A stretch of DNA of 51,486 nt from Betaproteobacteria bacterium (GCA_039931635.1 JBDTRO010000279.1:1-51486), one strand, 5' to 3'. Positions 1 through 17,052 are shown, numbered from the stretch's first letter. Notes: a model not told the origin generated them from the sequence alone. Numbers and translations are program-made.

Positions 1-2075
1 TCGGCCTGCTGCATCACATCTTCAAGAACGGCTGGGAAGACAAGCAGTACATCCATGACCGCGTCTATGGCATGGACAAGGTCAAGGAAGAGGTGATGGC
101 GAAGTACACGCCGGCCGCGGTCGAGGAAATCACTGGCGTGCCCGAGAAGGAGATGTTCGAGGTCGCCAAGATGCTGGCCGAGAATCGCCCGGGATTCATC
201 ATCTGGGCAATGGGGCAGACGCAGCACACCAACGGCAACGCCATCGTGCGCGCGAGCGCGGTCCTGATGCTGGCGCTGGGCAACGTCGGGCGGCCGGGCG
301 GCGGCTGCAACATCTACCGCGGCCATGACAACGTGCAGGGTGCGACCGACCTCGGCCCGAACCCGGATTCGCTGCCGGGCTACTACGGCCTGGCGCCGGG
401 CGCGTTCAACCACTGGGCGCGCGTGTGGAATATCGATCCGAAGTGGATCACGGCCCAGTACGCGTCGCCGGCGATGCAAGGCAAGCCCGGCATCACGGTA
501 TCGCGCTGGTTCGACGCCATCACGGAGAAGAACGAGAACATCGACCAGGACAACAACCTGCGCGCGGTGATCTTCTGGGGCCATGCACCGAACTCGCAGA
601 GTCGCGGCGCCGACATGCTCGAGGCGATGAAGAAGCTCGAGCTGATGGTCGTGATCGACCCGTATCCATCGGCCTCCGCCGCCATGTTCGCGATGGCGCG
701 CAAGGAAGGCGCCTACCTGCTGCCGGCGGCTACGCAGCTGGAGTGCGAAGGCAGCGTCACCGCCTCGAACCGCTCGCTGCAGTGGCGCGAGAAGGTCATC
801 GAGCCGATGTTCGAATCGCGCACCGACCACATGATCATGTACCAGCTCGCGCAGAAACTCGGCTTCGCCGACCAGTTCATCGGCAAGAAGGACGGCAAGC
901 AATCCATCAAGCTGGTGAAGGGCAAGAGCGGCATGGAAGAGCCGAGCATCGAGGACACGACGCTGGAGTTCAACCGCGGTGGCTGGACCATCGGCTACAC
1001 CGGCCAGTCGCCGATGAGGCTGCAGGCGCATATGCGCAACATGCACCTCTTCGACGTCAAGACGCTCAGGGCCAAGGGCGGCAAGGACGCGAAGACCGGC
1101 TATGACCTGACGGGCGACTACTACGGCCTGCCGTGGCCCTGCTACGGTACCGCCGAGATCAAGCACCCGGGGTCGCCAAATCTGTACGACACCACGCGGC
1201 ACGTCATGGAGGGCGGCGGATGCTTCCGCGCCAACTTCGGCGTCGAGCGCGATGGCGTCAATCTGCTTGCGGAAGACGGTTCGCACTCCAAGGGCTCGGA
1301 GATCACGACCGGCTATCCCGAGTTCGATCACGTGCTGCTGAAGAAACTCGGTTGGTGGGACGACCTTACGGAGGAAGAGAAGAAGGAGGCCGAGGGCAAG
1401 AACTGGAAGACCGATCTCCTGGGCGGCATCCAGCGCGTGACGATGAAGCACGGCTGCCACCCGTTCGGCAACGCCAAGGCGCGCGCGGTCGTCTGGAATT
1501 TCCCGGACGGCGTGCCGCTGCACCGCGAGCCGCTGTATTCGCCGCGGCCGGACATGGTCGCGAAGTGGCCGACGCACGACGACGTCAAGACCTTGTGGCG
1601 CCTGCCGACGCTGTTCAAGTCGGTGCAGCAGAAGGCGGTGGCGGACGGGGCGCACAAGAATTTCCCCTTGATCCTGACCAGTGGCCGGCTGGTGGAGTAC
1701 GAGGGTGGCGGCGAGGAAACTCGCTCCAACCCCTGGCTCGCCGAACTGCAGCAGGACAACTTCGTCGAGATAAATCCGAAATCGGCGGCCGATCGCGGTA
1801 TCCGCAACGGCGAGTACGTCTGGGTGAGTACGCCGTCGGGCGCGAAGCTAAAGGTGAAGGCTCAGGTTACCGAGCGCGTCGGCCCGGACACCTGCTTCAT
1901 CCCGTTCCACTTCTCGGGCTGGTGGCAGGGGCAGGACATGCTGCCCTACTACCCGGACGGCGCCGCGCCGATCGTGCGCGGCGAAGCGGTGAACACGGCG
2001 ACCACCTACGGCTACGACCGGGTCACCATGATGCAGGAAACCAAGACGACGCTTTGCCAGGTCGCGAAGGCATAA
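1..2075 (+). CDS. Formate dehydrogenase catalytic alpha subunit (bis-MGD Mo/W oxidoreductase family). Only the 3' ~690 codons are present; the 5' end lies off-window.
   Basis: The frame of ORF 72..2075 stays open back to base 3 (GLLHHIFKNGWEDKQYIHDRVYG precedes the first Met). The translation reads like the molybdopterin oxidoreductase / formate dehydrogenase family: AMGQTQHTNGNA, ELMVVIDPYPS, LILTSGRLVEYEGGGEETRSNPWLAELQ, and a C-terminal barrel EYVWVSTPSGAKLKVKAQVTERV. A 4Fe-4S partner and a cytochrome b subunit follow. Confidence 0.85.
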   Translation, partial: GLLHHIFKNGWEDKQYIHDRVYGMDKVKEEVMAKYTPAAVEEITGVPEKEMFEVAKMLAENRPGFIIWAMGQTQHTNGNAIVRASAVLMLALGNVGRPGGGCNIYRGHDNVQGATDLGPNPDSLPGYYGLAPGAFNHWARVWNIDPKWITAQYASPAMQGKPGITVSRWFDAITEKNENIDQDNNLRAVIFWGHAPNSQSRGADMLEAMKKLELMVVIDPYPSASAAMFAMARKEGAYLLPAATQLECEGSVTASNRSLQWREKVIEPMFESRTDHMIMYQLAQKLGFADQFIGKKDGKQSIKLVKGKSGMEEPSIEDTTLEFNRGGWTIGYTGQSPMRLQAHMRNMHLFDVKTLRAKGGKDAKTGYDLTGDYYGLPWPCYGTAEIKHPGSPNLYDTTRHVMEGGGCFRANFGVERDGVNLLAEDGSHSKGSEITTGYPEFDHVLLKKLGWWDDLTEEEKKEAEGKNWKTDLLGGIQRVTMKHGCHPFGNAKARAVVWNFPDGVPLHREPLYSPRPDMVAKWPTHDDVKTLWRLPTLFKSVQQKAVADGAHKNFPLILTSGRLVEYEGGGEETRSNPWLAELQQDNFVEINPKSAADRGIRNGEYVWVSTPSGAKLKVKAQVTERVGPDTCFIPFHFSGWWQGQDMLPYYPDGAAPIVRGEAVNTATTYGYDRVTMMQETKTTLCQVAKA

Positions 2076-2085
2076 GGAGAACGCC

Positions 2086-2724
2086 ATGGCCAGAATGAAA
2101 TTCCTGTGCGACGCCGAGCGCTGCATCGAGTGCAACGGTTGCGTAACCGCCTGCAAGCAGGAGCACGAGGTGCCCTGGGGCGTCAATCGCCGCCGCGTGG
2201 TGACGATCAATGACGGCGTCGTCGGGGCGGAAAAGTCGATCTCGGTCGCCTGCATGCACTGTTCGGACGCGCCTTGCATGGCGGTTTGCCCGGTGGATTG
2301 CTTCTACAAGACCGCCGACGGCGTAGTGCTGCACGACAAGGACCTGTGCATCGGTTGCGGCTACTGCTTTTACGCCTGCCCGTTCGGCGCGCCGCAGTTC
2401 CCGCAGGCGGGCGCCTTCGGCCTGCGCGGCAAGATGGACAAATGCACCTTCTGCGCCGGCGGCCCGGAAGCGGACAAGAGCGACGCCGAGTTCAAGAAAT
2501 ACGGCCGCAACCGCCTGGCGGAGGGCAAGTTGCCCGCCTGCGCTGAAATGTGCTCGACCAAGGCGCTGCTGGGCGGCGACGGCGACGTCATCGCCGACAT
2601 CTTTCGCGAGCGCGTCCTGCGCCGCGGCAAGAAAGGCGACGAGGCCTGGGGCTGGGGCAGCGCCTACGGCCAGCCACCCAAGGGTGGTGCGGCGCCGGCG
2701 GCTCCCGCCGGAGGCAAGTCGTGA
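2086..2724 (+). CDS. Formate dehydrogenase iron-sulfur (beta) subunit, multi-[4Fe-4S] ferredoxin type
   Basis: Cys clusters CIECNGCVTAC, CMHCSDAPCMAVC, CIGCGYCFYAC and CTFC...C. SD AAGGAGA lies 5 nt upstream of the ATG, 10 nt after the alpha-subunit stop. Confidence 0.85.
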   Translation: MARMKFLCDAERCIECNGCVTACKQEHEVPWGVNRRRVVTINDGVVGAEKSISVACMHCSDAPCMAVCPVDCFYKTADGVVLHDKDLCIGCGYCFYACPFGAPQFPQAGAFGLRGKMDKCTFCAGGPEADKSDAEFKKYGRNRLAEGKLPACAEMCSTKALLGGDGDVIADIFRERVLRRGKKGDEAWGWGSAYGQPPKGGAAPAAPAGGKS

Positions 2725-2972
2725 TGCGGCGCCTGTTGGTGACGACGGTGGTGCTGTCCGGCGTTCTGACTCTTCCCGCATGCATGGAAGTCGAGCAGAC
2801 GACTTCGCCGGAGAGGCAAGCCGGCCAGACGGTCAGGCGCGACACGGCGGCCTGGAACAACGAGCCGCTTGCCAATGGCCCGAAGTGGAGCAAGGGCGAC
2901 CGCACGAGCTGGGAAGAGCAGATCAAGCGGCGCCAGCTGACCCAGCACGAAGACCGTCGTATCTACCAGTAA
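2724..2972 (+). CDS. Small putative lipoprotein (82 aa) encoded between the FDH beta and gamma genes
   Basis: The in-frame ATG at 2724 shares its A with the beta-subunit TGA (gTGATG). MRRLLVTTVVLSGVLTLPAC reads as a signal peptide plus a lipobox-like LPAC. The remainder is hydrophilic. I recognise no family. Confidence 0.5.
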   Translation: MRRLLVTTVVLSGVLTLPACMEVEQTTSPERQAGQTVRRDTAAWNNEPLANGPKWSKGDRTSWEEQIKRRQLTQHEDRRIYQ

Positions 2973-2976
2973 CGCC

Positions 2977-4077
2977 ATGAACATTCTTTCCCGCACTACG
3001 GGTTTGCTGTTCCTCGCGCTGGCTTTTTCGCTGCCCGTGACCGCGCAAACGCCGCCGGCTCCCGCCGCGCAGCCGGCCGCGCCAGTCGACCAGGCGAAGG
3101 ATCAGCAGAAGCGCACGGTCGACCAGCCGGGCAACAATGCGCCCGTGTGGCGCGAGGTGCGTTCCGGCGAGGCGAACACCACGACCACGCAGGGCCGCGA
3201 AGCCGGCGTGCTGATCCAGCCGCAGGCGAGGTTCCCCGGCCAGGGGGTGATGTCCACGGCCGGCGAGGCGTGGCGCAATTTCAGGAACGGACCGATCACG
3301 TTCTACGGCGGCTGGCTGGTAGTCGTGGTGGCGGCGATCATCGCCGCGATTTACTTCACCCTGGGGCCGATCAAGCTGCACGACAAGCCCACCGGCCGGA
3401 TGATCGAGCGCTTTTCGCTCACGGAGCGCTGGGCGCACTGGGTGTTGGCGATCAGCTTCTGCGTGCTGGGCGTCTCCGGCCTGATCATCATCTTCGGCAA
3501 GCATGTGCTGCTGCCGGTGATCGGCTACACGCTGTTCGCGTGGCTCACCGCGCTCGCCAAGAATCTGCACAATTTCGTCGCGCCGCTGTTTATCGTCAGC
3601 CTGCTGGTGTTCATCGTGATTTATATCAAGGACAACCTGCCGGAGAAGGGCGACCTCGCGTGGCTCACCCAGGGCTGGAAGATATTCAAGGGCGAACACA
3701 TGCCGTCGGGCCGCTTCAATGCAGGCGAGAAGGCCTGGTTCTGGGGCGGCGTTGTGGTCCTTAGCCTGATCATCTGCGCCTCCGGCCTGGTACTGCTGTT
3801 CCCCAACTTCGACCAGGTGCGCGCCACCATGCAGCAGGCGAGCGTGGTGCACGCGGTCGCGGCGCTGCTGGTGATCGCGGCCGGCCTGGGCCATATCTAC
3901 ATCGGCACGATCGGCATGGAAGGCGCCTACGGCAACATGCGCGACGGCGTGACCGACGAGACCTGGGCCAAAGAACACCACGAGAACTGGTACAACGACG
4001 TGAAGTCCGGCAAGGTGGCCGCGAAGTCCGGCGCTGTGCCACAGACGCAGCATTTAGGAGGAACAAGGACATCATGA
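2977..4077 (+). CDS. Formate dehydrogenase cytochrome b (gamma) subunit with an N-terminal secreted extension
   Basis: The C-terminal ~250 aa form hydrophobic helices carrying conserved His (RWAHWVLAISF, LHNFVAPLF, VVHAVAALLVIAAGLGHIYIG), typical of FdnI/FdhC-type cytochrome b. The N-terminus is a signal peptide (MNILSRTTGLLFLALAFSLPVTAQ) followed by a Pro/Ala/Gln-rich stretch. Confidence 0.8.
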   Translation: MNILSRTTGLLFLALAFSLPVTAQTPPAPAAQPAAPVDQAKDQQKRTVDQPGNNAPVWREVRSGEANTTTTQGREAGVLIQPQARFPGQGVMSTAGEAWRNFRNGPITFYGGWLVVVVAAIIAAIYFTLGPIKLHDKPTGRMIERFSLTERWAHWVLAISFCVLGVSGLIIIFGKHVLLPVIGYTLFAWLTALAKNLHNFVAPLFIVSLLVFIVIYIKDNLPEKGDLAWLTQGWKIFKGEHMPSGRFNAGEKAWFWGGVVVLSLIICASGLVLLFPNFDQVRATMQQASVVHAVAALLVIAAGLGHIYIGTIGMEGAYGNMRDGVTDETWAKEHHENWYNDVKSGKVAAKSGAVPQTQHLGGTRTS

Positions 4078-4391: not shown

Positions 4392-5585
4392 CTAGGGTTT
4401 TTCTTCAGGCGGCTTGATGTTGCGGAATGCCGCCAGCAACAGCAGGTCGTAGAAGATCTTCAGTCCCCCGCATAGCAGCAGCGGCCAGACCTGGTAGCCC
4501 GCCGCGAACAGCGCACCGGCTAGCACCGGACTGGCTGCCGAGGCGAGGCTGCGGGGCACCGCGGTCACGCTCGCGGCCGCAGGCCGTTCGGCCTCGGTGA
4601 CCACGGCCATCACGTAGGACGAGCGCGTCGGCACGTCCATCTGCGACAGCGCGGCGCGCACCATCAGCAGCCCCAGTGCCCACGCGACCGAGGGCGCGAA
4701 TGCCGCGCCGATCAGGCACAGGCTGGACGGAATGTGGGTGAAGACCATGGTGTTCACCAGCCCGATGCGCGACCCGATCCAGGCGGCGACCGGGAAGGAA
4801 AAAGCAGACAGCGTGCCGGTCCAGAAGAAGAACAGGCTCGCCGCCGTCAGCGACAGGTCGAAGCGCTCGAACAGCCAGAGCGCGAGCATCGACTGGACGA
4901 CGAACCCGCCTGCGAATGCATCGATGCTGAACAGCGCCGCCAGCCTGTAAACGATGCCTCGCGAAGGACCGAGAGCGGATGCAGGTTTTACGTCCGTCGC
5001 ACGCGCCGGTACCCTGATGCGCGAATAGGCCAGGCCTCCGGCGATCCCGAGAACCGCGTAAACGACGAACATGATCTTGATCGCGGCAAGCTTGCCGATG
5101 CCAAGCGGCGCGAGCCACTCCGGCATGCCCGCGAGCAGCGAACCGAAGGCGCCGGCGAGTGCGCCGATCAGGCTGTAGCGCGCGAACGCACGCGTCCTCT
5201 GCGCCGGCGTGACTGCACCCGTCAATACCGTGTGCTCGAGCGGCACGAAGATGCTGGTACTGCCGCCGGAAGGGTTGATCGTGCCGACGAAAGCGACGAC
5301 CAGCAGGATCGCGTATTCGCTTGCGGCCGCGTAGGCGAGGCCGGTTGCGGCCATGAGAGCCGAAGCGGCGAGCAGGAGGACGCGATGGTCGCGTCCCCCG
5401 CCGAGCAGTCCGATTCCGAGAGTAAGGATCGCCGAGCCGAGCAACGCCAGCGTAGCAACCACGCCGACCTCGAATATCGACAGCCCGAGGGCGGTGAGGT
5501 AGACCGGGAGAAGTATCGCGACGAAGCCGTCGCCGAAGTCGCGGATCGCCCGGGCGAGGTAAACGCTATGCGCTGCGCTAGACAC
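4392..5585 (-). CDS. MFS-type transporter
   Basis: 397-aa polytopic hydrophobic protein with an MFS-like helix pattern. Its GTG start overlaps the stop of the upstream DUF1330 gene by 8 nt. Confidence 0.7.
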   Translation of the reverse strand: MSSAAHSVYLARAIRDFGDGFVAILLPVYLTALGLSIFEVGVVATLALLGSAILTLGIGLLGGGRDHRVLLLAASALMAATGLAYAAASEYAILLVVAFVGTINPSGGSTSIFVPLEHTVLTGAVTPAQRTRAFARYSLIGALAGAFGSLLAGMPEWLAPLGIGKLAAIKIMFVVYAVLGIAGGLAYSRIRVPARATDVKPASALGPSRGIVYRLAALFSIDAFAGGFVVQSMLALWLFERFDLSLTAASLFFFWTGTLSAFSFPVAAWIGSRIGLVNTMVFTHIPSSLCLIGAAFAPSVAWALGLLMVRAALSQMDVPTRSSYVMAVVTEAERPAAASVTAVPRSLASAASPVLAGALFAAGYQVWPLLLCGGLKIFYDLLLLAAFRNIKPPEEKP

Positions 5586-5865
5586 CTTCGACCAGGATCA
5601 GCTTCGCGTTCGCAGCCTTCAGGCGCATCTCGAGGGCGGGCGCGTATTCCGGCGAGTCGTACCACTTGCGCGCCTGCTCCATGGTCGGAAATTCCAGCAC
5701 CACCAGGCGCGCGGGATTCCAGTCGCCTTCTTTCCGCTCCACGGTGCCGCCGCGCACGGCGAAGCGGCCGCCGTACTTTTCCACCGTGGCGGGGACGAGC
5801 TTCTTGTAGTCGTCGTAAAGCTTCGGATCGGTAACGTTTACTTCGACAATGACGTAGGCACTCAA
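5578..5865 (-). CDS. DUF1330-family small protein
   Basis: 95 aa: SAYVIVEVNVTDPKLYDDYKK...RFAVRGG...VVLEFPTMEQARKWYDSPEY, which reads as DUF1330 (dimeric alpha/beta barrel). TTG start with GGGAG 6 nt upstream. Confidence 0.7.
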   Translation of the reverse strand: MSAYVIVEVNVTDPKLYDDYKKLVPATVEKYGGRFAVRGGTVERKEGDWNPARLVVLEFPTMEQARKWYDSPEYAPALEMRLKAANAKLILVEGV

Positions 5866-5883: not shown

Positions 5884-6507
5884 TTACTTTGCTGACGGGC
5901 CCCAGCCGAAATCGTCGAAAGCGGTAACGCTGTCCGCCTTGGTCCAGACGCCGACTGCGCCCGGGCCCGAGATCTGGCGGTCGTCGAGATCAATATACGC
6001 CTTGCCGTCGAGAGATACGCGGACGCGGGTCCCGGAAAACTCCACGCGCAGCGTGTGCCAGGTGGCAGTGGCGACCGGCGCGTCCACGTACTTGATCGTC
6101 TTCCGTGAGCCGCCCGTGGTGTGGTAGAGCGAGACATTGTTCTCGAGCGCATTGGCTCGCGCCACGTAATAGTTGTCGCCATTCTTCCACCGCCATACCA
6201 GTCCGCCGGCCTGGTCTCGTCTGCCGGATATCGGCTTGAATTTCACTTCGACGAAGCCATTTTCGAGTTGTATGTCCTGATTGACCGCCCACGGATACAC
6301 GCCACTGCCCGATTGCTTCAGGACATTCGGCTTCGATGGTGCGGAGGCATCGGCTTCGACCGCCCATTTCGGCTTTCCACCTCCTGTCGCACCGCTCACC
6401 CACCCGGCGGGGAGAGTGTCCGCCGCCGTCTCGTCAAAGCCGATCGATTGGGCTGAAGCGGCGATCATGAAAATTCCCAGATAGAGAAACAGCAATAGTC
6501 GCAGCAT
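5884..6507 (-). CDS. Secreted LamG/DUF1080-like (3-keto-disaccharide hydrolase fold) protein
   Basis: Only the last 207 codons of tracked ORF 5884..7872 look real. They start at ATG 6507 (MLRLLLFLYLGIFMIAASAQS signal peptide). Motifs GWVSG..., FVEVKFKP..., GLVWRWKNGDNYYVARAN and WHTLRVEF fit a concanavalin-like jelly roll. Confidence 0.55.
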   Translation of the reverse strand: MLRLLLFLYLGIFMIAASAQSIGFDETAADTLPAGWVSGATGGGKPKWAVEADASAPSKPNVLKQSGSGVYPWAVNQDIQLENGFVEVKFKPISGRRDQAGGLVWRWKNGDNYYVARANALENNVSLYHTTGGSRKTIKYVDAPVATATWHTLRVEFSGTRVRVSLDGKAYIDLDDRQISGPGAVGVWTKADSVTAFDDFGWGPSAK

Positions 6508-6527: not shown

Positions 6528-7826
6528 CTAGATGAGCGGCGTCACGAGCGTCACAATCAGCCCTGCCAGTGCGCATGCGCCGATCACCGGCATAACGCCG
6601 GTCTTGAAGCGGAACAGCGCAACCAGGGCCGCCAGGCCGATCGCCGCGGAAATCCAGTCGAACGGGCCGTCCGTGCCCTGCGGCCACAGCACGTGGTACG
6701 CGAAGAACATTGCGAGATTCAGGATCACTCCCACCACGGCGGCGGTGATGCCCGTCAGCGGCGCGCTGAATTTGAGGTTGCCGTGGGTGGTTTCGATGAA
6801 CGGCGCGCCCATGAATATGAAGATGAAAGAGGGGAGGAACGTGAAGTACGTCGCCACCAGCGCACCTGCGACGCCCGCGCCCATGAAGCCCACGAAGGCC
6901 ACCACCATGATGAGCGGACCGGGCGTGGTTTCGCCCAGCGCCAGGCCGTCGATCATCTGCGGTGCAGTCAGCCAGCCGTAGTGCTCGACGCCGCCCTGGA
7001 ACACATAGGGCAGCACGGCGTAGGCGCCGCCGAAGGTGAGCAGCGCGGCCTTGGTGAAGAACCAGCCCATCTGCGTGAGCGTGCCCTCCCAGCCCCAAGC
7101 AAGGAGGAGCGCGGCCATCGTCAGCGCCCAGAGCGCAAGCCCCGCGACGGCGTAGGCCCAGAGCTTCGTCCACGAGAACACGGCGTGCGCCGGCGTCGGC
7201 GTGGCGTCGTCGATGACGGCGGGCCCGTAGGCGGTTTTTGCAGCCCCGTGGCCGCCGCTGGAGGCGAACACACCTGGCGCGAATCTGCCGCCGAGGTATC
7301 CGATTGCGCCGGCGGCCAGGACAATCAAGGGGAAGGGCAGCTTGGCTGCAAAAATCGCGACGAACGCGGCGGCCGCGATCGCCCACAGTGCGGGATGCTT
7401 GAGTGCGCGCGAACCGATGCGGTGCGCTGCGGCGACCACGATCGCCGTTACTGCCGGCTTGATGCCGTAGAAGATGCCCGCCACCACCGGCACGTTGCCC
7501 CAGGTTACGTAGATCCACGACAGCGCGATCAGGATGAACACCGAAGGCAGCACGAACAGCCCGCCCGCGACGATGCCGCCCCAGGTGCGGTGCATCAGCC
7601 AGCCGATGTACGTGGCTAGCTGCTGTGCTTCGGGTCCGGGAAGCACCATGCAGTAGTTGAGCGCGTGCAGAAACCGGTTTTCCGAAATCCAGCGCCGGCG
7701 TTCGACCAGCTCCTGGTGCATGATCGCGATCTGCCCGGTCGGCCCGCCGAAGCTGATGAAGCCGAGCTTCAGCCAGAAACGGAAGGCTTCTCCGAACGAG
7801 ACGGGGTCGGGTCTGGTCGAGTTCAT
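6528..7826 (-). CDS. chrA: Chromate efflux transporter ChrA
   Basis: Hallmark N-terminus [66 protein letters not shown], and a duplicated CHR domain (second copy [14 protein letters not shown]...[13 protein letters not shown]). The ATG at 7826 overlaps the upstream stop (ATGA). The 118 codons upstream of it in the tracked ORF look non-coding. Confidence 0.9.
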
Positions 7827-8743
7827 TTCGGTTCGATCGGCCTGCCGGATTTCTTCCAGTCCTCGATGCCACCCGACAGGAAGCGCGCCGTGATGCCTGC
7901 GTCGCGCAGCCGTGCCGCGGTGGACTGACCTACCTCGTGCCCATACACGCAATACACCACCACTTCGGCGCCGGCATACTCGGCCGCCCATTCGTCCACG
8001 CGCTCGGGATCGCGCCACACCGCGCCTTCGATCAAGTCGGGCGCAGCGTCGTAGGCCCCCTTGCGCCGAACGTCGATGCGCTTGATCCCGCCCGAGCTCA
8101 ACAGGATTGCGGCGGAGGCAGCAAGCGCCGTGGTCGAGGCATCGACCGCCGCAGCATAGCGCAGCGCCACGCCATCCCAATCGATGTTCTCCATGTACGC
8201 GGCCACGTATGCCTTGGCGTTGGCGCCATAGTCCATGTGATACGAATGCTCGTACATATCGAGGGCCAGGATCGGCGCCGCGCCAGCGAGCAAATGGGTG
8301 TGATCGGCAGCCCAGTGATTCAGGAGCCGGTTCTCGCGCGTGGACCAGGAGAGCAGGACCCAGCCCGACCCGCCACCCATCGCCGTCGCCAACGCGACAA
8401 ACTCATCCCGCCATCGCTCGAAGCTGCCAAAGTCGCGCTTCAGCCCGACGCCGAAACCTGCCGGCTTGCCTGCCGACTTGAGGGTGCCATCGCCGCCCAG
8501 GCTGGCGAAGTAAAGTTCGTGCAAGCCCATGGAGTTGGCCGCGATCAGTTCTTCGCGTTTCAGCCCGTTGATGCGGAAGCCGGGCGCCGATGCCCAGTCG
8601 AGCCCGGCGAGTTCGGCGCGGATCGCGTGCAGGCGCTTGACGGCGCCGCTGTAATTGTTCTGGTGATGGGATTGCAGCAGGCGCTCGGAAAGGCCTTTCA
8701 GCTTCGCGGCATCGAAGGGCAGGGGAAGGATGGCAGGGATCAT
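7823..8743 (-). CDS. Fe/Mn-SOD-like (ChrC-like) domain fused to a C-terminal single-domain rhodanese
   Basis: The N-terminal ~200 aa read as [24 protein letters not shown]...GLHELYFAS...GSGWVLL...[15 protein letters not shown], an SOD fold with the four metal ligands present. The C-terminal ~90 aa read as IDVRR...[10 protein letters not shown]...[23 protein letters not shown], a rhodanese with its catalytic Cys. ATG 8743 overlaps the upstream stop (ATGA). Confidence 0.8.
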
Positions 8744-9519
8744 TTGTAGGTCTCCGGGTTCCAGGTGTGGATTTCCGACTTGCCTTCCTTGCACCAACGG
8801 TAGAGCGCGTCGTACAGGGTCATGCCGTGCTCGAGCATCTCATGGTCGTTCCTGAAAACGAGCGACAGCCCCAGGGACACGGCCAGCAGTCCCGCCGCCT
8901 GCGGTGCAAGGCCGAGCTTGCCGGTATCGGCGGCGCGCACGATCCGTGCAAGCTTGTCCAGCGCGGGGTCTTTCAGGCGGTACCGCGCGATGAACGCGTC
9001 GAAGCTGCAGAAGTCCCCTTCGTGCGTGAATTCGACGTCTGCGACGTCGTAGGGCACAGCTTCCCGTTCAGCCGCGATCTTTCTTACATCCTGCGTTGGC
9101 ACGTAGAGGAATTCGGCATCCGGATCGATGAACCGCTTCACCAGCCACGGGCAGGCGATGCGGTCGATCTTCGGCCGCTCGCGCGTTACCCAGCGGGAGC
9201 TTGCCCCTTTTGGCTTGCCAAAGAGCGCCCCGCCGGCTTCGCGCCAGGCTTCCAGTCCGCCTTCGAGGTAACGGGCGCCCAACGCCATTGCCGCGTTCTG
9301 GCTGACCTCATGCCCGTGAACGCAATACACGACCACGTCGGTTTCGCCGGGGAGGCTCTTGCGCCACTCGGCGACCCGCAGCGGATCGCGCCGCAGCGCG
9401 CCGCGGACCAGATCCGGGGCGCCGAGGAAGGTGGGGCTCTTGCGCACGTCGATGACGATGGGCGGCGCGCTGGAAACCAGGCGCGCATGGAGTTCAGCCG
9501 GCGTTATGGATGCATTCAT
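8740..9519 (-). CDS. N-terminal rhodanese fused to a ChrB C-terminal (chromate-resistance) domain
   Basis: aa 1-100 read as VIDVRKS...RRDPLRVAEW...VVVYCVHGHEVSQNAAMAL (rhodanese). aa ~105-259 read as WVTRERPKIDRIACPWLVKRFIDPDAEFLYVP...EFTHEGDFCSFDAF, clearly paralogous to the C-domain of ChrB at 11632..12588 (WATRKDPWVDRLASAWLIKRFIDPAARFVWLD). Confidence 0.8.
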   Translation of the reverse strand: MNASITPAELHARLVSSAPPIVIDVRKSPTFLGAPDLVRGALRRDPLRVAEWRKSLPGETDVVVYCVHGHEVSQNAAMALGARYLEGGLEAWREAGGALFGKPKGASSRWVTRERPKIDRIACPWLVKRFIDPDAEFLYVPTQDVRKIAAEREAVPYDVADVEFTHEGDFCSFDAFIARYRLKDPALDKLARIVRAADTGKLGLAPQAAGLLAVSLGLSLVFRNDHEMLEHGMTLYDALYRWCKEGKSEIHTWNPETYK

Positions 9520-9594
9520 GATTTCCTCATTCTTTCACTATCGGATTGCAAACGAGGTCGGCCAGGCAGTTACGCCACCTTCTCCTCGAATCAA

Positions 9595-10545
9595 TTACGT
9601 GTGCATCCTGATCGCGCCGCCGGCCGCCTTCCATCCCGAATGGCCGACATTCATGTACCGAGCGTCGAAGCCGGCGTCGCGCAGCGCGATCGCGGTCTTG
9701 CAGCCGACGTGGAAGCCGTAGGCGCAGTACACCACCACGGGCTTCTCCTTGGAGAGCTCGCCCATCCATTCCCCGACGCGCTCGGGATCGCGCCACTCCA
9801 CGCCGTCGGCGATGTCCTGCTGGCGCGAGACGAAATGCTTGGGCCGCGTGTCGATGAGCTGGACTTTGCCCTCTGCCAGCATCTCCCTGACTTCCTCGAC
9901 GCCAACACCCTGGATGTCGCCGAACTCAGGCTGCAGCAGCGGCCGCGGCGGCGCCGCCTTCGTCGCGTCCTCGTAGCGTTCCCCGATCCCCTGCCAGTCG
10001 ACATTGCGCAGAAACGTGTCGACATAGGCCTTCACGTTCGCGCCAAAATCGATGTGGTAGGCATGCTCATACATGTCGAGCGCAAGTATCGGGATGCCGC
10101 CCGCCACCGACTGGCTGTGATCTGCCGCGTACTGGTTGATGAGGCGCCCGTCGCGCGGCATCCAGGTGAGCAGCACCCAGCCGGAGCCGCCGCCGAGCGC
10201 ATAGCCCATGGCGGAGAATTCGGCGCGCCAGCGCTGCAAGGAGCCGAAGTCGCGCGCCAGCGCTTCGGACATCGGCGGGATCACCCTTCCTTCGCCGCCC
10301 ATGCTGGCGAAATAGAGCTCGTGCAAGAGCGTGGAATTAAGCGCTACCAGCTCCTCGCGCTTTAGCCCGTTGATGACGTTTACGGGCGCCTTGGCATAGT
10401 CGAGCGCTTCGAGCTGCTCGGTAATGGCGTTCAGGCGCCGCAGTGCGCCGCCGTAATTGTTCTCGTAGTGGCTCTCGATGAGTTTCAGCGATAGACCGCT
10501 GAGGGTCCAGGGACGGCAATGGATCTGTTTCAATTGATATTTCAT
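9595..10545 (-). CDS. Second Fe/Mn-SOD-like (ChrC-like)::rhodanese fusion protein
   Basis: Same architecture as 7823..8743: LIESHYENNYGG...LLHELYFAS...GSGWVLLTW...[15 protein letters not shown], then IDTRPK...WRDPERVGEW...VVVYCAYGFHVGCKTAIALRDAG. Strong SD GAGGAG lies 6 nt upstream and overlaps the OCD stop. Confidence 0.8.
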   Translation of the reverse strand: MKYQLKQIHCRPWTLSGLSLKLIESHYENNYGGALRRLNAITEQLEALDYAKAPVNVINGLKREELVALNSTLLHELYFASMGGEGRVIPPMSEALARDFGSLQRWRAEFSAMGYALGGGSGWVLLTWMPRDGRLINQYAADHSQSVAGGIPILALDMYEHAYHIDFGANVKAYVDTFLRNVDWQGIGERYEDATKAAPPRPLLQPEFGDIQGVGVEEVREMLAEGKVQLIDTRPKHFVSRQQDIADGVEWRDPERVGEWMGELSKEKPVVVYCAYGFHVGCKTAIALRDAGFDARYMNVGHSGWKAAGGAIRMHT

Positions 10546-10557
10546 CGCTTGCTCCTC

Positions 10558-11547
10558 TTAAGAAAAAGGAAATCGGGTTCCCGCGCCTGCATTGAGCGCG
10601 TGACGGTAAGTGGCAATCGCCGCAGCGACATCCTGGAGTCCGGTGCCTGTTGAATCGAATACGACGATCTCGTCGGTGGACATGCGCCCTTGCTTCCTGC
10701 CGCTCACCACTTCGCCGAGCTCAGCGTGAACATCGCCAGGAGTCATCGTTCCGGCGGCGATGGCATGATGGAGATCGCCGATCCTGCAAGCCTGCTCGGT
10801 CAGATCGGTGACGACGGTCGCCTGCGCCATCAGGTCGGGATCGATCTCCTGCTTGCTCTCGCTGTCCGCACCCACTGCGGCGATGAAGGTTCCGGGGCGC
10901 ACCATTTTCCTCGTCACGAAGAAGCGCTGAGCAGTGGTGCAGGTGACGACGAGGTCGCTCTGTCCCACGGCCTCAGCCAGGTTCGGCGCAGCCACGATCG
11001 GGATAGCGAGTTCCTTCCCGAGCGAGATGGCGAAGGCCGCCGCTTTGGCGGCGGCCTGGTCGTACGCCAGGACCTGGCGCGGCCTGCGCACCCGCAGCAG
11101 CGCGCGCAATTGAGCCGCCGCCTGTCCGCCGCACCCGCAAATCAGTGCCGTCCCGCATTCCTCCCGTGCCAGGTATTTCGCTGCCACGGCCGTTGCAGCA
11201 GCGGTGCGCAGCGCTGTAATGGAGATCGAATCCATGATTGCGAGCGGCGCGCCATTGCCGGCATCGGAGAGGATCACGGCGCCCTGGATCGTTGGGAGTC
11301 CGTTGCGGATCGCATTCTGCGGGAAGTTGGCATTGAGCTTGGCGGCAAAGTACGGCCGGTCAAGCGCCAGAAATCCGGCCTTGACGTGAAATCCACCATC
11401 CCCGGAGTGCATGCCCAGGATTCCCGGCGGCGGTACCTGGCCGAGCGCGAGCTGCCTGAAGGCGTCCTCGACCGCGGCTATGCATGCATCCGGTGTAAGG
11501 AGCCGCTCGACGTCGCCCCGTGACAGCAGCAGTGTTCCGTTGTTCAT
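10558..11547 (-). CDS. Ornithine cyclodeaminase / mu-crystallin family protein
   Basis: 329 aa, with a Rossmann segment LICGCGGQAAAQLRAL and family-typical ITALRTAAATAVAAKYLA and IAAVGADSESKQEID. It is the first gene of the minus-strand chr operon. Confidence 0.8.
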   Translation of the reverse strand: MNNGTLLLSRGDVERLLTPDACIAAVEDAFRQLALGQVPPPGILGMHSGDGGFHVKAGFLALDRPYFAAKLNANFPQNAIRNGLPTIQGAVILSDAGNGAPLAIMDSISITALRTAAATAVAAKYLAREECGTALICGCGGQAAAQLRALLRVRRPRQVLAYDQAAAKAAAFAISLGKELAIPIVAAPNLAEAVGQSDLVVTCTTAQRFFVTRKMVRPGTFIAAVGADSESKQEIDPDLMAQATVVTDLTEQACRIGDLHHAIAAGTMTPGDVHAELGEVVSGRKQGRMSTDEIVVFDSTGTGLQDVAAAIATYRHALNAGAGTRFPFS

Positions 11548-11602
11548 GGGGACAGAGCGTAGTCAGTCGCCCGAGCTTCGTCCAGAGGGTTTGGCTAGTT
11601 AT

Positions 11603-11620
11603 TATCACTAATATGTGATA
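11603..11620. promoter_or_regulatory. Perfect inverted repeat TATCAC-N6-GTGATA in the chrB / chr-operon divergent promoter region (candidate operator)
   Basis: TATCACtaatatGTGATA read directly from an AT-rich 84-bp spacer, 12 nt upstream of the chrB ATG (11632). It is flanked by -10-like hexamers (TAATAT, TATAAC). Confidence 0.5.
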
Positions 11621-11631
11621 TCTATAACACA

Positions 11632-12588
11632 ATGACTATTCTCGATGCGCTGATTCTCAGTCTGCCGACCCGGAACTCGACCGTCCGCATGCGCGCATGG
11701 CGCGCCCTGAAAGACTCTGGCTGCGGCGTGCTGCGAGACGGTGTCTATGTCCTGCCCGCCAGCGCGGTGGCAAACGCCGCACTCGGGGAGGTTGAATCGG
11801 ACATCCGTTCAAGCGGTGGCTTCGCCATGCGGGTCGAGCTGCACCTCAAGACCGACGAGCAGCGCGCGCATCTGCGCGGCCTTTTCGATCGCAGCCCCGA
11901 CTACGCGGCGCTGCTTGGCGAGATCAAGGACGCTCGCGCACGACTTCGGCGTCTCGGTCCGCGCAAGGCGCAAACCTGCGTCCACCGGTTGCAGCGCCAG
12001 TTCGACAAGCTTGCTGCCGTTGACTTCTTTCCCGGCGCGGCGAAAACCCAGGCGGCAGACGCCATCGCGACGCTGAAAAGAGATTATCGGGAGACTTACG
12101 CGCAGGGCGAACCGCGCGTATCCCGCCGGCGGCTGCGACCGGCCGATCGGGCGAAATACGAGACCCGCACCTGGGCGACACGTAAGGATCCGTGGGTAGA
12201 CCGCCTCGCAAGCGCATGGCTCATCAAACGATTCATCGATCCTGCTGCGCGGTTCGTCTGGCTCGATCGTCCGAGCAACCTGCCGCGCAAAGCGGTCGGA
12301 TACGACTTCGACGGCGCTGAATTCACCCATGTCGGAAACCGCGTGACTTTCGAAGTGCTCATGGAAACCTTTGGTCTGGACAAGGACCCGGCGCTTGCCG
12401 CCATCGCCGCGTCCGTGCACTTCCTCGATGTGGGCGGCGCCACTGCGGCAGACGCCAAGGGCCTGGAAACTGTCCTCAAGGGAGTGAAGGAGAAAGCCCG
12501 CAATGACGATGCGATGCTCGCCGAGGCAGTCCGCATCTTTGACCACTTTTATTCGGCGTACGCAGAGAGAAAATCCGTTTCCGCCTAA
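11632..12588 (+). CDS. chrB: Chromate resistance regulator ChrB (N and C domains)
   Basis: 318 aa. The N-terminus LILSLPTRNSTVRMRAWRALKDSGCGVLRDGVYVLP and the C-domain WATRKDPWVDRLASAWLIKRFIDP...FDGAEFTHVGNRVTFEVL are typical of ChrB. It is divergent from the chrA-containing operon. Confidence 0.85.
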   Translation: MTILDALILSLPTRNSTVRMRAWRALKDSGCGVLRDGVYVLPASAVANAALGEVESDIRSSGGFAMRVELHLKTDEQRAHLRGLFDRSPDYAALLGEIKDARARLRRLGPRKAQTCVHRLQRQFDKLAAVDFFPGAAKTQAADAIATLKRDYRETYAQGEPRVSRRRLRPADRAKYETRTWATRKDPWVDRLASAWLIKRFIDPAARFVWLDRPSNLPRKAVGYDFDGAEFTHVGNRVTFEVLMETFGLDKDPALAAIAASVHFLDVGGATAADAKGLETVLKGVKEKARNDDAMLAEAVRIFDHFYSAYAERKSVSA

Positions 12589-13619
12589 GCTGCCCGCTTT
12601 CGCGGACGCGGTTGTTTCAGCCATGTGAGCGCCGCGCCCAATTCCTCCCGATCGCCGGCATTGGCGGCATCGTAGCCGGCGAGCTGCAACGCTTCCTTCT
12701 GGAATCCGCTGCTGCGCATCGCAGCGAGCAGCAGCTGCAACGGCGGCTCGCGGAAAGTCTTGCGCTGGAGCGCCAGATAGTAACGTTCGGTGGCGAGCGG
12801 AACAAACTCGAGGCTATAGCGTGCCGCGGCCGCGCGCAGCCCGAAGCCTGCGTCCGCGCGTCCATCCGCGACCGCGGCTGCGACCGCCAGATCCACGTCG
12901 TCATGCGGGCCTGGGCCCGGCGGCCGGTTCATGAAGCGCAGGCCGGCGCGCGCGAGGTCGCGAACGCCGCGCACCCGCACGCCAGGGCGGACGATGATGC
13001 CTTGCTCGCGGGTCACGAAATGCAGCAACTGGTGCCGCTGCGGATCGAGCCAGCGTCCGAGCGCGGCGGCGGCGGCGGCGGCGCGCGGCAGGGCGTCGGC
13101 AACATGGAATCCCGCCAGGTCGCATTCCCCCCGCGCCAGCGCGGCGAGGCATTCGTCGGCGCCCCGGAAGGCGATGTCCAGGCGCAGGCGCGGCGCGCAT
13201 AGCCGCGCGAGCACGGGAAGGGCCAGGTCGTGGCTCGCACGCAGGGAAAGATGCGATGCCTGTCCGGGCCCCGCGCCTGCGAGCATCTCCTGCACCTCCC
13301 GGCGCAGCCGTTCCAGTTGCGCGTCGAGAGTAGTGCGCACGTGAGCATCCGCTGCCAGGAGTTTGCGACCGTAGTCCGTGAGACGCGCGCCCTTGCCCCG
13401 TTGCATATCCACAAGCGGAAAACCCAGCGCGCGCGCGCCGGCGCCCAGCAGTCCCCAGGCGTGACGGTAGGAAAGACCTGCCGCATGCGCGGCTTCGCGC
13501 AACGAGGCGGCACGCGAGAGCGCCGAAAGCAGGGCGAGCAGCGCCTGGCCGTGGCGGGGCGACAGGCCTTCGCCCGCGAGCCAGCTTGGCTTCAGGTCAA
13601 TGTCCGGGCTTATATGCAA
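12585..13619 (-). CDS. ModE-type winged-helix DNA-binding domain fused to a periplasmic-binding-protein-like sensor domain (TunR-like tungstate/molybdate regulator)
   Basis: The N-terminus ...ASLREAAHAAGLSYRHAWGLL...GFPLVDMQRGKGARLTDYGRKLL resembles the ModE N-domain. The C-terminal ~230 aa are PBP-like (no Mop domains). The TTG start at 13619 is the only start in frame near the spacer. Divergent from tupBCA. Confidence 0.7.
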   Translation of the reverse strand: MHISPDIDLKPSWLAGEGLSPRHGQALLALLSALSRAASLREAAHAAGLSYRHAWGLLGAGARALGFPLVDMQRGKGARLTDYGRKLLAADAHVRTTLDAQLERLRREVQEMLAGAGPGQASHLSLRASHDLALPVLARLCAPRLRLDIAFRGADECLAALARGECDLAGFHVADALPRAAAAAAALGRWLDPQRHQLLHFVTREQGIIVRPGVRVRGVRDLARAGLRFMNRPPGPGPHDDVDLAVAAAVADGRADAGFGLRAAAARYSLEFVPLATERYYLALQRKTFREPPLQLLLAAMRSSGFQKEALQLAGYDAANAGDREELGAALTWLKQPRPRKRAA

Positions 13620-13691
13620 AAGATTACCTATTTATTCTTCCGCTGCTGTTCGCATACAGTGATGTTGTCTCAATTAATATGCAAATGCAAA
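13612..13691. promoter_or_regulatory. Direct repeats of ATATGCAAA in the regulator / tupB divergent spacer (candidate regulator sites)
   Basis: ATATGCAAA occurs at 13612..13620 (overlapping the TTG start of the regulator) and again at 13677..13685. A third ATGCAAA follows at 13685..13691. The spacer is visibly AT-rich. TAATAT (13675..13680) is -10-like. Confidence 0.3.
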
Positions 13692-13698
13692 CATAAGT

Positions 13699-14349
13699 AT
13701 GGATACGCTCGGCCAGATTGTTGCCCTGAGCCTCGCGGTGAGCCTTTCGGCTGTGCTGCTGGCGGCGTTGATCGGATTGCCACTGGGCGCCGCCATTGCC
13801 GTCGGGCGCTTTCCCGGCCGGCGCGCGCTGATCGTGCTGCTCAATGCATTGATGGGGCTGCCACCGGTTGTGGTCGGGCTGCTGGTCTACCTGCTCCTGT
13901 CGCGGGCTGGACCGCTGGGGGAAATGGGATTGCTGTTTACGCCGCCGGCAATGGTGATCGCGCAAACCCTCCTGGTGCTGCCGATCATCGCCGCGCTTTG
14001 CCGTCAGTCGGTGGAAGACGCCTGGGTCGAGTACGAGGAGCAACTGCGTTCGCTGGGCGCCCACGGCCTTCGCGCCGCCGTGACCCTGGTCTGGGATATC
14101 CGCTTTTCCCTGGTGACCGTGGTACTCGCCGGGCTGGGGCGGGCGCTCGCCGAAGTGGGCGCGGTAATCATCGTTGGCGGCAACATCGATGGCGTCACGC
14201 GCGTAATGACCACCACCATCGCGCTCGAGACCTCGAAGGGCGATCTGCCCCTTGCGTTGTCGCTCGGCTTCATTCTTATTTCGCTGGTGATCCTGCTGAA
14301 CGCAGCGGCCCATCTCATCAAGGAAGCCGCGCAGCGGCGCTACGGCTGA
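13699..14349 (+). CDS. tupB: Tungstate ABC transporter permease (TupB-like)
   Basis: 216-aa ABC permease with five hydrophobic helices and an EAA-like loop. Its stop overlaps the start of the ATPase gene (14349). Confidence 0.8.
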   Translation: MDTLGQIVALSLAVSLSAVLLAALIGLPLGAAIAVGRFPGRRALIVLLNALMGLPPVVVGLLVYLLLSRAGPLGEMGLLFTPPAMVIAQTLLVLPIIAALCRQSVEDAWVEYEEQLRSLGAHGLRAAVTLVWDIRFSLVTVVLAGLGRALAEVGAVIIVGGNIDGVTRVMTTTIALETSKGDLPLALSLGFILISLVILLNAAAHLIKEAAQRRYG

Positions 14350-15077
14350 TGGCGGCCTCCGGGAGCATCCTGCCCTTGTCGCTGCGCGGCGTTCGTTTTG
14401 CCGCCGGCGGGCGCAACATCATCGACGGCATGTCGGCCACAATCGGCGCCGGGCCGGCGACCATCATCCTGGGCGCCAATGGCGCCGGCAAGAGCGTGCT
14501 GATGCGACTGATGCATGGCCTGCTGCAGCCGACGTCGGGAGAAATTGCCTGGCGCGCCCAGGACGCGGAGCGGGTGCGGCGTGGGCAGGCGATGGTGTTC
14601 CAGCGGCCGGTGCTGCTGCGCCGTTCGGCACTTGCCAACATCCTCTATGCGCTGGAACTCGCGCGCGTCCCGGCTGCGGAATGCGCGCGGCAGGCGATGG
14701 ACGCGCTGCGCGAAGTTGGCCTTGCCGACGTGGCGCACCGGCCGGCGCGCGTCCTCTCCGGCGGCGAACAGCAGCGCCTTGCGCTGGCGCGCGCCTGGGC
14801 GCTGCACCCCGAAGTGCTGTTCCTGGATGAGCCGACCGCGAACCTGGATCCCGGCGCGACGCGCGAGATCGAAAGCGTGATCAAGGCGTTCGACGCGTCC
14901 GGAACCAAGATCGTCATGTCGACACACAACCTCGGCCAGGCGCGCCGGCTCGGCGACGAAGTGCTGTTCATCCATCAGGGGCGTCTGGTCGAGAGCGCGC
15001 CGGTGGATGCATTTTTCGGCGAACCCGCCTCCGCTGAAGCGGCAGCGTTCGTCAAAGGAGAACTGCCTTGGGTCTAG
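14349..15077 (+). CDS. tupC: Tungstate ABC transporter ATP-binding protein (TupC-like)
   Basis: Internal ATG at 14349 of tracked ORF 13230..15077 (TGATG overlap with tupB). Walker A GANGAGKS, signature LSGGEQQRLALARA, Walker B VLFLDEPT. The 373 codons upstream in the tracked ORF run antisense to the regulator and are spurious. Confidence 0.85.
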   Translation: MAASGSILPLSLRGVRFAAGGRNIIDGMSATIGAGPATIILGANGAGKSVLMRLMHGLLQPTSGEIAWRAQDAERVRRGQAMVFQRPVLLRRSALANILYALELARVPAAECARQAMDALREVGLADVAHRPARVLSGGEQQRLALARAWALHPEVLFLDEPTANLDPGATREIESVIKAFDASGTKIVMSTHNLGQARRLGDEVLFIHQGRLVESAPVDAFFGEPASAEAAAFVKGELPWV

Positions 15078-15877
15078 TCGTGAAGTTCGTGCTTGCGTCG
15101 CTGCTTTGTACCCCGGTCTACGCGCAGCAGAGATTCATAACAGTCGCATCCACGACCTCAACCGAGCAGTCGGGCCTTTTCAAGTACCTGCTGCCACTGT
15201 TCGAGAACAAGACCGGCATCCAGGTGCGCGTGGTTGCGCTGGGTACGGGTCAGTCGCTCGACATGGGCAGGCGCGGCGACGCAGACGTGGTGTTTGTCCA
15301 TGCCAAGCCGCTCGAGGAGAAGTTCGTCGCCGATGGCTTCGGTGTGCAGCGCTTCGAGGTCATGTACAACGACTTCGTGCTGGTCGGACCGAAGTCCGAT
15401 CCGGCGAAGGTGGGCGGCAGCAAGGACATCGTTACGGCGCTGCAGAAGATCCGGGGCGCGCAGGCGCCATTCGCCTCGCGAGGCGACAAGAGCGGCACGC
15501 ATTTCGCCGAGCTCGAACTCTGGCAAGCCGCCGGCATCGATATCGCTAAGGACAAGGGACCGTGGTACCGGGACACCGGTTCCGGCATGGGCCCGACGCT
15601 CAATACTGCGTCTGGAATGAATGCGTATGCGCTCGCGGACCGGGGAACGTGGCTGTCGTTCAAAAACCGCGGCGCGCTGGTCATCTCCGTGGAGGGCGAC
15701 CGGCGTCTGTTCAACCAGTACGGCGTGATCCTGGTGAATCCGGCGAAGCATCCCCACGTGAAAAGAGAAATGGGCCAGGCCTTCGTCGATTGGGTGATTT
15801 CGCTTGAAGGACAGAACGCCATTGCGTCCTACAAAATCGGTGGCGAGCAGCTATTCTTCCCGAATGCGGCGAACTGA
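15068..15877 (+). CDS. tupA: Tungstate ABC transporter substrate-binding protein (TupA-like)
   Basis: Signal peptide ...LASLLCTPVYAQ, then ITVASTTSTEQSGLFKYLLPLFE, GTGQSLDMGRRGDADVVFVHA and RGDKSGTHFAE, typical of TupA/WtpA-type binding proteins. TTG start with GGAG 7 nt upstream, overlapping the tupC end. Confidence 0.8.
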   Translation: MGLVVKFVLASLLCTPVYAQQRFITVASTTSTEQSGLFKYLLPLFENKTGIQVRVVALGTGQSLDMGRRGDADVVFVHAKPLEEKFVADGFGVQRFEVMYNDFVLVGPKSDPAKVGGSKDIVTALQKIRGAQAPFASRGDKSGTHFAELELWQAAGIDIAKDKGPWYRDTGSGMGPTLNTASGMNAYALADRGTWLSFKNRGALVISVEGDRRLFNQYGVILVNPAKHPHVKREMGQAFVDWVISLEGQNAIASYKIGGEQLFFPNAAN

Positions 15878-16232: not shown

Positions 16233-16244
16233 TCGCGCCGGCTT

Positions 16245-17027: not shown

Positions 17028-17052
17028 ATTGCGCCTTCTCCAAAGGATCCCC

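Follow-up and report, generated by a model that had tools for sequence, protein, structure and literature searches.

How does a chromate-resistance operon come to encode three rhodanese modules, each fused to another protein domain, and does such an arrangement connect chromate resistance with sulfurtransferases in a way that had not been recognized? The question is raised by a stretch of DNA of 51,486 nucleotides from a Betaproteobacteria bacterium (GCA_039931635.1 JBDTRO010000279.1:1-51486), the whole of which is referred to here as the window. The host is an uncultured Burkholderiales-like bacterium, whose best species-level match is 72% identical. A sequence-only reading of the window had drawn attention to three consecutive genes chained to the chromate transporter gene chrA, two of which join a superoxide dismutase (SOD)-like domain to a rhodanese and one of which joins a rhodanese to the C-terminal domain of the regulator ChrB, and had held that chr determinants were not described as having sulfurtransferase modules. 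The answer reached here is that this is a known kind of system, a chrBACEF-type determinant, and that there is no new link between chromate and sulfurtransferases. The locus is recognizable by homology as a chromosomal chr1-type chromate-resistance operon in which known accessory genes occur in fused form.

Three Fusion Genes Upstream of chrA

On the minus strand the genes follow each other in the order OCD (ornithine cyclodeaminase/mu-crystallin family), chrC::chrE, chrE::chrF, chrC::chrE, chrA, cep, DUF1330 and chrP, with chrB divergent. The upstream copy of chrC::chrE (9595..10545, minus strand) encodes 316 amino acids, in which Pfam identifies Sod_Fe_C (76.5 bits; gathering score 20.9) and Rhodanese (36.0 bits; gathering score 22.2). 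The chrE::chrF gene (8740..9519, minus strand) encodes 259 amino acids with Rhodanese (27.9 bits vs 22.2) and ChrB_C (173.9 bits vs 25), and the downstream copy of chrC::chrE (7823..8743, minus strand) encodes 306 amino acids with Sod_Fe_C (79.0 bits) and Rhodanese (34.2 bits vs 22.2). The Pfam check bears out the domain assignments of the sequence-only reading (two SOD-like domains, three single-domain rhodaneses and one ChrB C-terminal domain), and its coordinates and sequence strings for the three genes are correct. Its linkage of the genes also holds: ATGA stop/start overlaps at 8740-8743 and 7823-7826 chain chrE::chrF and the downstream chrC::chrE to chrA, so that the downstream fusion gene overlaps its neighbours at both ends.

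The chrA gene (6528..7826, minus strand) passes the cutoffs of both families that describe chromate efflux transporters (TIGR00937, 251.1 bits vs 171.7; Chromate_transp, 270.7 bits vs 28.6, in two stretches). The divergent gene at 11632..12588 (plus strand) has ChrB_N (31.3 bits) and ChrB_C (148.4 bits) in a single protein and adjoins the operon, as expected of the full-length regulator ChrB.

All three rhodanese modules pass the gathering score of PF00581 and contain the catalytic Cys, in each case in the C-x-x-G-x-x loop that had been pointed out from the sequence; the fold was checked on one module. In the upstream chrC::chrE, the module lies at about 9622-9900, with Cys274 at 9724-9726, Cys282 at 9700-9702 and the loop CAYGFHVGC. 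In chrE::chrF, the rhodanese occupies 9223-9519, with Cys66 at 9322-9324 in the loop CVHGHEVSQ, and is joined to a ChrB_C domain at 8791-9192 that contains Cys123 (9151-9153), His166 (9022-9024) and Cys171 (9007-9009). In the downstream chrC::chrE, the module lies at about 7850-8104, with the loop Cys, Cys265, at 7949-7951. The two SOD::rhodanese proteins are 50% identical from end to end.

Relationship to the chr1 Determinant of pMOL28

When the protein encoded by chrE::chrF was compared with plasmids by tblastn, a match was found on pMOL28 of Cupriavidus metallidurans CH34, extending across two adjacent genes. The annotation of pMOL28 reads chrI / chrB-chrA-SOD (197 amino acids)-chrE (113 amino acids)-ChrB_C-only protein (140 amino acids), followed by two hypothetical proteins, an MFS transporter, a DUF1259 protein and a YncE-family protein; this agrees with the published operon, chrZYPNOF1ECA1B1<->chrI (PMC11647585).

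Each part of the fusion proteins has its counterpart among the proteins of pMOL28. By BLASTP, the SOD parts of the upstream and downstream copies are similar to ChrC over its full length (60.2% over 196 amino acids and 62.5% over 200 amino acids, respectively), and both lie in a chr operon, as ChrC does. The ChrB_C part of chrE::chrF, which occurs without ChrB_N, is 61.6% identical to ChrF1 vs 36.1% to the C-terminal domain of ChrB1. Between the rhodanese parts and ChrE the identity is 36-45% (upstream chrC::chrE, 38%; chrE::chrF, 36%; downstream chrC::chrE, 45%; E 8e-17 to 8e-23), the Cys loop is kept (CVHGHQVSQ in ChrE, alike in the window loops, including CAYGFHVGC), and every module has ChrC and ChrF modules fused to it or next to it. 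Of the rhodanese models, the one that scores highest for each of the three is NF033833 of NCBIfam, named "rhodanese family chromate resistance protein ChrE". The divergent gene is 41% identical to ChrB1 over 305 amino acids, and ChrA is 30% identical to ChrA1. By these similarities the three genes are assigned as chrC::chrE, chrE::chrF and chrC::chrE.

The rhodanese of a model chr determinant therefore already has a name, and the premise of novelty in the sequence-only reading was wrong: chrE, in the order chrB1-A1-C-E-F1 of pMOL28, encodes a rhodanese for which there is an NCBIfam model, a SEED/RAST role and a literature. Branco and Morais count ChrE as one of the chr genes (PMC3817168), and it is a role in the RAST subsystem "resistance to chromium compounds" (PMC5727363). 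In a statement that cites Juhnke et al., it is described as an enzyme of the rhodanese type, with cleavage of chromium-glutathione complexes as its proposed activity (PMC10581121), and both ChrE and ChrC proteins are induced in CH34 by a toxic metal mixture, MultiTox (PMC11647595). In Pseudomonas stutzeri RCH2, random barcode transposon-site sequencing (RB-TnSeq) found a rhodanese-related sulfurtransferase with a chromate-specific fitness defect, and the same study concluded that the reduced-sulfur pool is a target of chromate (PMC5554334). The description of the partner of the middle rhodanese as a stand-alone copy of the ChrB C-terminal domain needs a similar amendment: the domain is indeed ChrB_C, but the gene is one already named, chrF.

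Occurrence and Origin of the Fusions

Both fusion architectures are already catalogued in databases, while full-text literature searches found no description of a SOD-rhodanese or rhodanese-ChrB_C fusion. The best 120 clusters for each fusion were examined in a database of 5.8 billion proteins. For SOD::rhodanese, both Pfam domains are present in 120/120 of these clusters, which are 76-100% identical and match in length and coverage; for rhodanese::ChrB_C, they are 73-100% identical with matching length and coverage, and a weak rhodanese call is recorded for some only. SOD::rhodanese was confirmed in at least 583 metagenome stretches. Relatives of rhodanese::ChrB_C occur in at least 599 stretches, counting one genome per species, mostly from the Beta-, Alpha- and Gammaproteobacteria. 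In proteins clustered at 50%, 306 representatives match it at E<=1e-30. As a side observation, one representative of 2327 amino acids (P0266), with 16 separate stretches that match the rhodanese part, looks like a giant poly-rhodanese protein.

A census of the fusions and of their linkage to chrA, which the sequence-only reading had proposed as a check, shows both fusions to be common; rhodanese::ChrB_C lies directly upstream of chrA in about 65 of the 80 species loci kept, mostly as a two-gene cassette. SOD::rhodanese is found in the arrangements chrB-chrA-[C::E]-chrF, [E::F]-[C::E]-chrA, chrB(-)/[C::E]-[E::F] and chrB(-)/[C::E]-chrF-[C::E], where C, E and F stand for the respective chr modules. 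Intermediate arrangements occur in Acidovorax and Comamonas (chrB-chrA-[C::E]-chrF) and in Rhizobium and Agrobacterium ([E::F]-chrA). Among the strains in culture that carry a fusion are Acidovorax sp. T1, Comamonas testosteroni ATCC 11996, Variovorax, Pseudomonas sp. JS3066 and Rhizobium; unfused ChrC is the majority form on plasmids.

Did the three modules arise from one another within this operon? They had been called paralogous, and they are homologous, with pairwise BLASTP identities of 36%, 46% and 49% (E 2e-16 to 5e-24). However, when the covariation of module type with fusion partner was assessed across about 170 loci, SOD and rhodanese were both of the upstream type in 52 and both of the downstream type in 33, and the middle-type rhodanese came with ChrB_C in 74. 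The type of the module thus tracks its partner across loci, which implies three old fusion families rather than duplicates made in the operon, and a recent duplication of the rhodanese module within the operon is ruled out.

Three modules together were found in the window only, among the window and 163 loci (146 with one module and 16 with two), many of whose contigs are short. In the syntenic loci L164 and L165, there is no counterpart of a segment of 3.1 kilobases (9467..12580), delimited by blastn breakpoints and gene tables, that contains chrB, OCD and the upstream chrC::chrE. In these loci and in L167 the order is [E::F]-[C::E]-chrA-(DUF1330)-MFS, and formate dehydrogenase genes lie beyond its far end; immediately upstream, L164 and L165 have a ModE-like regulator. 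Of the relatives whose gene context was looked up, the closest is L168, with a SOD::rhodanese that is 88% identical; chrB and OCD are present there, the extra chrC::chrE is absent, and cep lies between the two fusions. Since chrB is absent in L164, L165 and L167 and present in L168, the locus is plastic. Judged by this synteny, the count of three comes from a locally gained chrB-OCD-chrC::chrE segment.

Conserved Residues and Predicted Structure

The residues H26, H75, D162 and H166 of the downstream SOD domain, which we take to be metal ligands by the numbering of the Escherichia coli enzyme, correspond to H26, H75, D157 and H161 in the upstream copy and match the ligand positions (His26, the His81 equivalent, Asp and His) in SODs of known structure. 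Together with the rhodanese Cys, they are kept in 88/88 SOD::rhodanese proteins. Gly at +3 from this Cys is likewise invariant (88/88), and Cys66 is invariant in 86/86 rhodanese::ChrB_C proteins. A second Cys, eight residues past the catalytic one, is present in 50/88 SOD::rhodanese proteins, forming the commonest loop class, which includes the upstream copy; in loops of the CAYGFHVGC class this may be a resolving Cys.

In the comparison of ChrF with ChrB, the domain at 8791-9192 was set against the ChrB gene at 11632-12588 and against loci L001-L163. A core of W110, T112, R113, D119, R120, W125, R129, D158, H166, F173 and D198 is common to ChrF-type domains and full-length ChrB. Cys123 and Cys171 are specific to the ChrF type, being present in 86/86 fused domains and in 22-25 of 25 standalone ones, and the same positions in full-length ChrB are Ser (27/31) and Val (24/31). 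As aligned here, these Cys positions tell ChrF from ChrB at the level of single residues. Position 243 is often Cys in ChrF-type domains and is Phe in full-length ChrB.

A model of the chrE::chrF protein made with AlphaFold 2, from an alignment of 62 sequences (representatives at 50% identity), has a mean predicted local distance difference test score (pLDDT) of 94.3 and a predicted template modelling score (pTM) of 0.84, values which suggest that the predicted protein is a fixed two-domain body; an earlier run with an alignment of 18 sequences at 73-100% identity gave a pLDDT of 50.6 and was discarded. Using Foldseek, the N-terminal domain of the model was matched to single-domain rhodaneses with TMt of 0.66-0.82 (0.82 to 3gk5 and 0.69 to GlpE), and also to enzyme-rhodanese fusions of persulfide metabolism. 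Foldseek gave no match for the ChrB_C half, which is without a solved relative, and no PDB entry was matched by the chrE::chrF sequence at E<=0.01.

A Proposed Mechanism and Its Alternatives

The reading favoured here, with a probability of roughly 0.55, is that of a chr1-type operon with fused ChrC, ChrE and ChrF in which ChrE works physically with both of its partners. In the presence of chromate, ChrB would switch the operon on and ChrA would pump chromate out of the cell. The cytoplasmic ChrC domain would remove the superoxide that arises from one-electron reduction of Cr(VI) and from Cr(VI)/Cr(V) cycling, and the Cys of the tethered ChrE would carry out thiol or persulfide chemistry, the targets being chromium-thiol adducts or the damaged pool of reduced sulfur. 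ChrF would bind the oxyanion through the core of Arg, Lys, His and Trp residues that it has in common with ChrB, and its pair of Cys residues would pass sulfur or electrons to and from ChrE, next to ChrA. Joint action of ChrE with each of its partners is suggested by the alternative C::E and E::F fusions, which constitute Rosetta-stone evidence and, at the level of sequence, argue that ChrC, ChrE and ChrF function jointly.

Several points weigh against this reading. The three modules score 64.1, 67.8 and 92.0 bits with NF033833, over nearly the full 108 positions of the profile, vs an equivalog cutoff of 120, and are therefore to be called ChrE-like homologues and not certified equivalogs. ChrF has been described as a putative transcriptional repressor rather than an enzyme (PMC7060636), and no report of a biochemical activity of ChrE or ChrF was found in the literature searched. 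In the SOD::rhodanese proteins, the gateway position of Tyr34 is Ala in 87/88 and the position of His30 is Asn; Sod_Fe_N of Pfam was undetected at E<=0.01 in both SOD domains, which score 40-95 bits with the SOD equivalogs of NCBIfam, below the cutoffs of 300-363. As the gateway residues are missing and Sod_Fe_N is undetected, plain SOD activity of the fusion is not assured, and the ChrC-type domains may be metalloenzymes other than ordinary superoxide dismutases.

A possible, though rather less than even, explanation is that chrE::chrF is regulatory and not catalytic: the ChrF domain would be a chromate-binding modulator of ChrB or ChrA (a repressor, an anti-activator or a gate of the transporter), with the rhodanese as an input for redox or sulfur status and the SOD::rhodanese proteins as plain stress enzymes. 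This would accord with the description of ChrF as a repressor (PMC7060636), with the presence of W110, T112, R113, D119, R120, W125, R129, D158, H166 and D198 in both ChrF-type domains and ChrB, and with the fact that in most genomes the cassette is nothing more than the fusion and chrA and no full-length chrB lies close by, such that the fusion could be the only sensor. However, both ChrF and the fusion are without ChrB_N, presumably the DNA-binding part; the ChrF-type Cys pair and the invariant rhodanese Cys suggest chemistry beyond the binding of a ligand; and the same type of rhodanese is also fused to the enzyme ChrC. Chromate is tetrahedral, like arsenate and thiosulfate. The rhodanese loop might be an oxyanion pocket, as in arsenate reductases of the rhodanese/Cdc25 fold, and the ChrE modules Cr(VI) reductases or thiolators rather than sulfurtransferases. 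The fold, the invariant Cys and the Gly at +3 would fit such a role, and the Foldseek matches include the rhodanese-fold phosphatase-like proteins 2hhg, 3fs5 and 3f4a. It is nevertheless improbable: the loops, CV(Y/H)GHEV(G/S)Q or CAYGFHVGC, do not have the arginine of C-X5-R, the best matches are of the sulfurtransferase type (GlpE, YgaP and persulfide dioxygenase-rhodanese fusions), and reduction of Cr(VI) by a single thiol would itself yield Cr(V) and radicals.

The surroundings of the operon raise the question of whether the cluster serves another oxyanion of group 6 or of sulfur (molybdate, tungstate, sulfate or sulfite) in this lineage, as it lies between formate dehydrogenase genes and ModE-like, PBP_like_2, TauE, MobB and MoeA genes, and its rhodanese modules have weak matches to the rhodanese domain of MoeB/MoeZ (E about 0.002-0.009). 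There is little to recommend this, given that for each component the greatest similarity is to one of the named chr proteins of pMOL28, that chrA and chrB accompany the modules on plasmids and in other, unrelated settings, and that the synteny is limited to close relatives in a plastic locus. A sequencing, assembly or frameshift artefact, by which separate chrC, chrE and chrF genes would have been joined, was one of the refutations that the sequence-only reading itself had named. The same modules are separate and adjacent in pMOL28, where chrE and chrF1 overlap by 4 nucleotides. However, the linkers in the window are in frame, the domains covary by family, and the same architecture occurs in independent assemblies and completed plasmids; an artefactual origin, the chance of which is negligible, is ruled out by the best 120 clusters for each fusion, which come from independent assemblies; finished plasmids and genomes, among them those of cultured strains, carry the fusions too.

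The reading of a chr1-type operon in which ChrE cooperates with ChrC and ChrF can be extended further, into territory that is distinctly doubtful. ChrF might be a thiol-active, oxyanion-binding domain and not a regulator, forming a relay with the ChrE rhodanese and the metal centre of ChrC as a cytoplasmic Cr(VI)-handling complex coupled to ChrA. If this were true, the complex would perform controlled reduction or repair of the sulfur pool, and its footprints would be the alternative fusions, C::E and E::F, together with the Cys pair that is confined to ChrF-type ChrB_C domains.

For more than 20 years the model determinant has included ChrE and ChrF by name, and there is now a specific hypothesis for them, that of a ChrC-ChrE-ChrF thiol/persulfide module, based on the finding, across hundreds of genomes, of ChrE fused now to ChrC and now to ChrF, on the conservation of every catalytic residue and on the ChrF-only cysteines. 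Its value lies in a ChrC-ChrE-ChrF coupling and in ChrF-specific cysteines that can be tested, the fusions being present in cultured strains.

Neighbouring Genes

At the head of the operon is the ornithine cyclodeaminase/mu-crystallin family gene (10558..11547, minus strand; Pfam OCD_Mu_crystall, 226 bits), whose stop lies 12 nucleotides before the upstream chrC::chrE. Homologues of it are found at 9 further chr loci; in 6 (L168, L131, L126, L145, L161 and L129) the identity is 52-88%. Downstream of chrA, the gene at 5884..6507 (minus strand) encodes a ConA-like protein that is probably exported, as its N-terminus is signal-peptide-like when judged by eye; its 3keto-disac_hyd score of 24.9 bits is slightly under the gathering score, and it fits the description of the cep gene in the chr operon of Cupriavidus neocaledonicus (PMC7060636). 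It is followed by a DUF1330 gene (5578..5865, minus strand; Pfam, 123 bits) and by a gene for a ChrP-like transporter (4392..5585, minus strand; MFS_1), 54% identical to ChrP of pMOL28 over 393 amino acids. These genes recur in related chr loci: cep-like genes in 24, DUF1330 genes in 14, downstream of chrA, and ChrP-like MFS genes in 22. A scan for sigma-70 promoters found none, terminator-like sites were at the background of shuffled sequence (8 vs 6.1), and the region between chrB and OCD contains no inverted repeat that would fit a ChrB operator.

The chr cluster is flanked by formate dehydrogenase genes on one side and by a molybdenum/tungsten (Mo/W)-related block on the other (about 800-4077 and 12585-20100). 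The block comprises a ModE-like regulator, a PBP_like_2 ABC transporter (possibly of the tungstate/molybdate type), TauE, CMD, radical-SAM/DUF3641, MobB and MoeA. Both flanks are kept in L164 and L165, and most of them in L167 and L171. In the close relatives L169 (4849-5364) and L170 (4372-4719), a gene for a Cu/Zn SOD (Sod_Cu) lies just downstream of the chr cluster, which adds a further gene of superoxide defence to this locus.

Comparison with Known Systems

The module set and the order C-E-F are common to the window operon and chr1 of pMOL28. In pMOL28 the modules are separate genes, whereas in the window they are fused (C::E, E::F and C::E) and the C::E unit occurs twice. The chrA gene is downstream of the accessory genes in the window and upstream of them in pMOL28; chrB in the window is divergent, with the OCD-family gene in between, and cep and DUF1330 are present, unlike in chr1. 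No homologues of chrI, chrO, chrN, chrY or chrZ were found among the window operon proteins compared with pMOL28 by BLASTP. Furthermore, the window cluster is chromosomal and located in a neighbourhood of Mo/W enzymes, whereas chr1 is on a plasmid.

Closer in form are the cassettes in which the fusions are already annotated. The RefSeq "sulfurtransferase/chromate resistance protein" that precedes chrA on plasmids of Rhizobium, Agrobacterium and Paracoccus consists of Rhodanese and ChrB_C, as in the window, with 46-54% identity. In Acidovorax sp. T1 (p1-T1) and Comamonas testosteroni ATCC 11996, the order is chrB-chrA-["Fe-Mn family superoxide dismutase"]-chrF, in which the protein of 306 amino acids named as a dismutase is Sod_Fe_C plus Rhodanese and is 58-60% identical to that of the window. 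These cassettes have one fusion type per locus, whereas the window has both types and, in addition, a second SOD::rhodanese, of the other subfamily. The chrBACF operon of TnOtChr from Ochrobactrum tritici 5bvl1, likened here from its published description only, resembles the window operon in being ChrB-regulated and in having chrA, a SOD-like chrC and chrF (PMC3817168); a separate rhodanese gene is not part of the published operon.

Outside chromate resistance, the rhodanese domains of the persulfide dioxygenase-rhodanese PRF (5ve3), of CoA-disulfide/persulfide reductase-rhodanese proteins (3ict and 3nta) and of GlpE (1gmx) superpose on the N-terminal domain of the chrE::chrF model. The partner domains in the window, a ChrC-type SOD and a ChrF-type ChrB_C, are unrelated to the enzymes of the sulfur-metabolism fusions, and the rhodanese identity is 17-28%; the logic, however, is the same, that of a redox enzyme tethered to a carrier of Cys persulfide.

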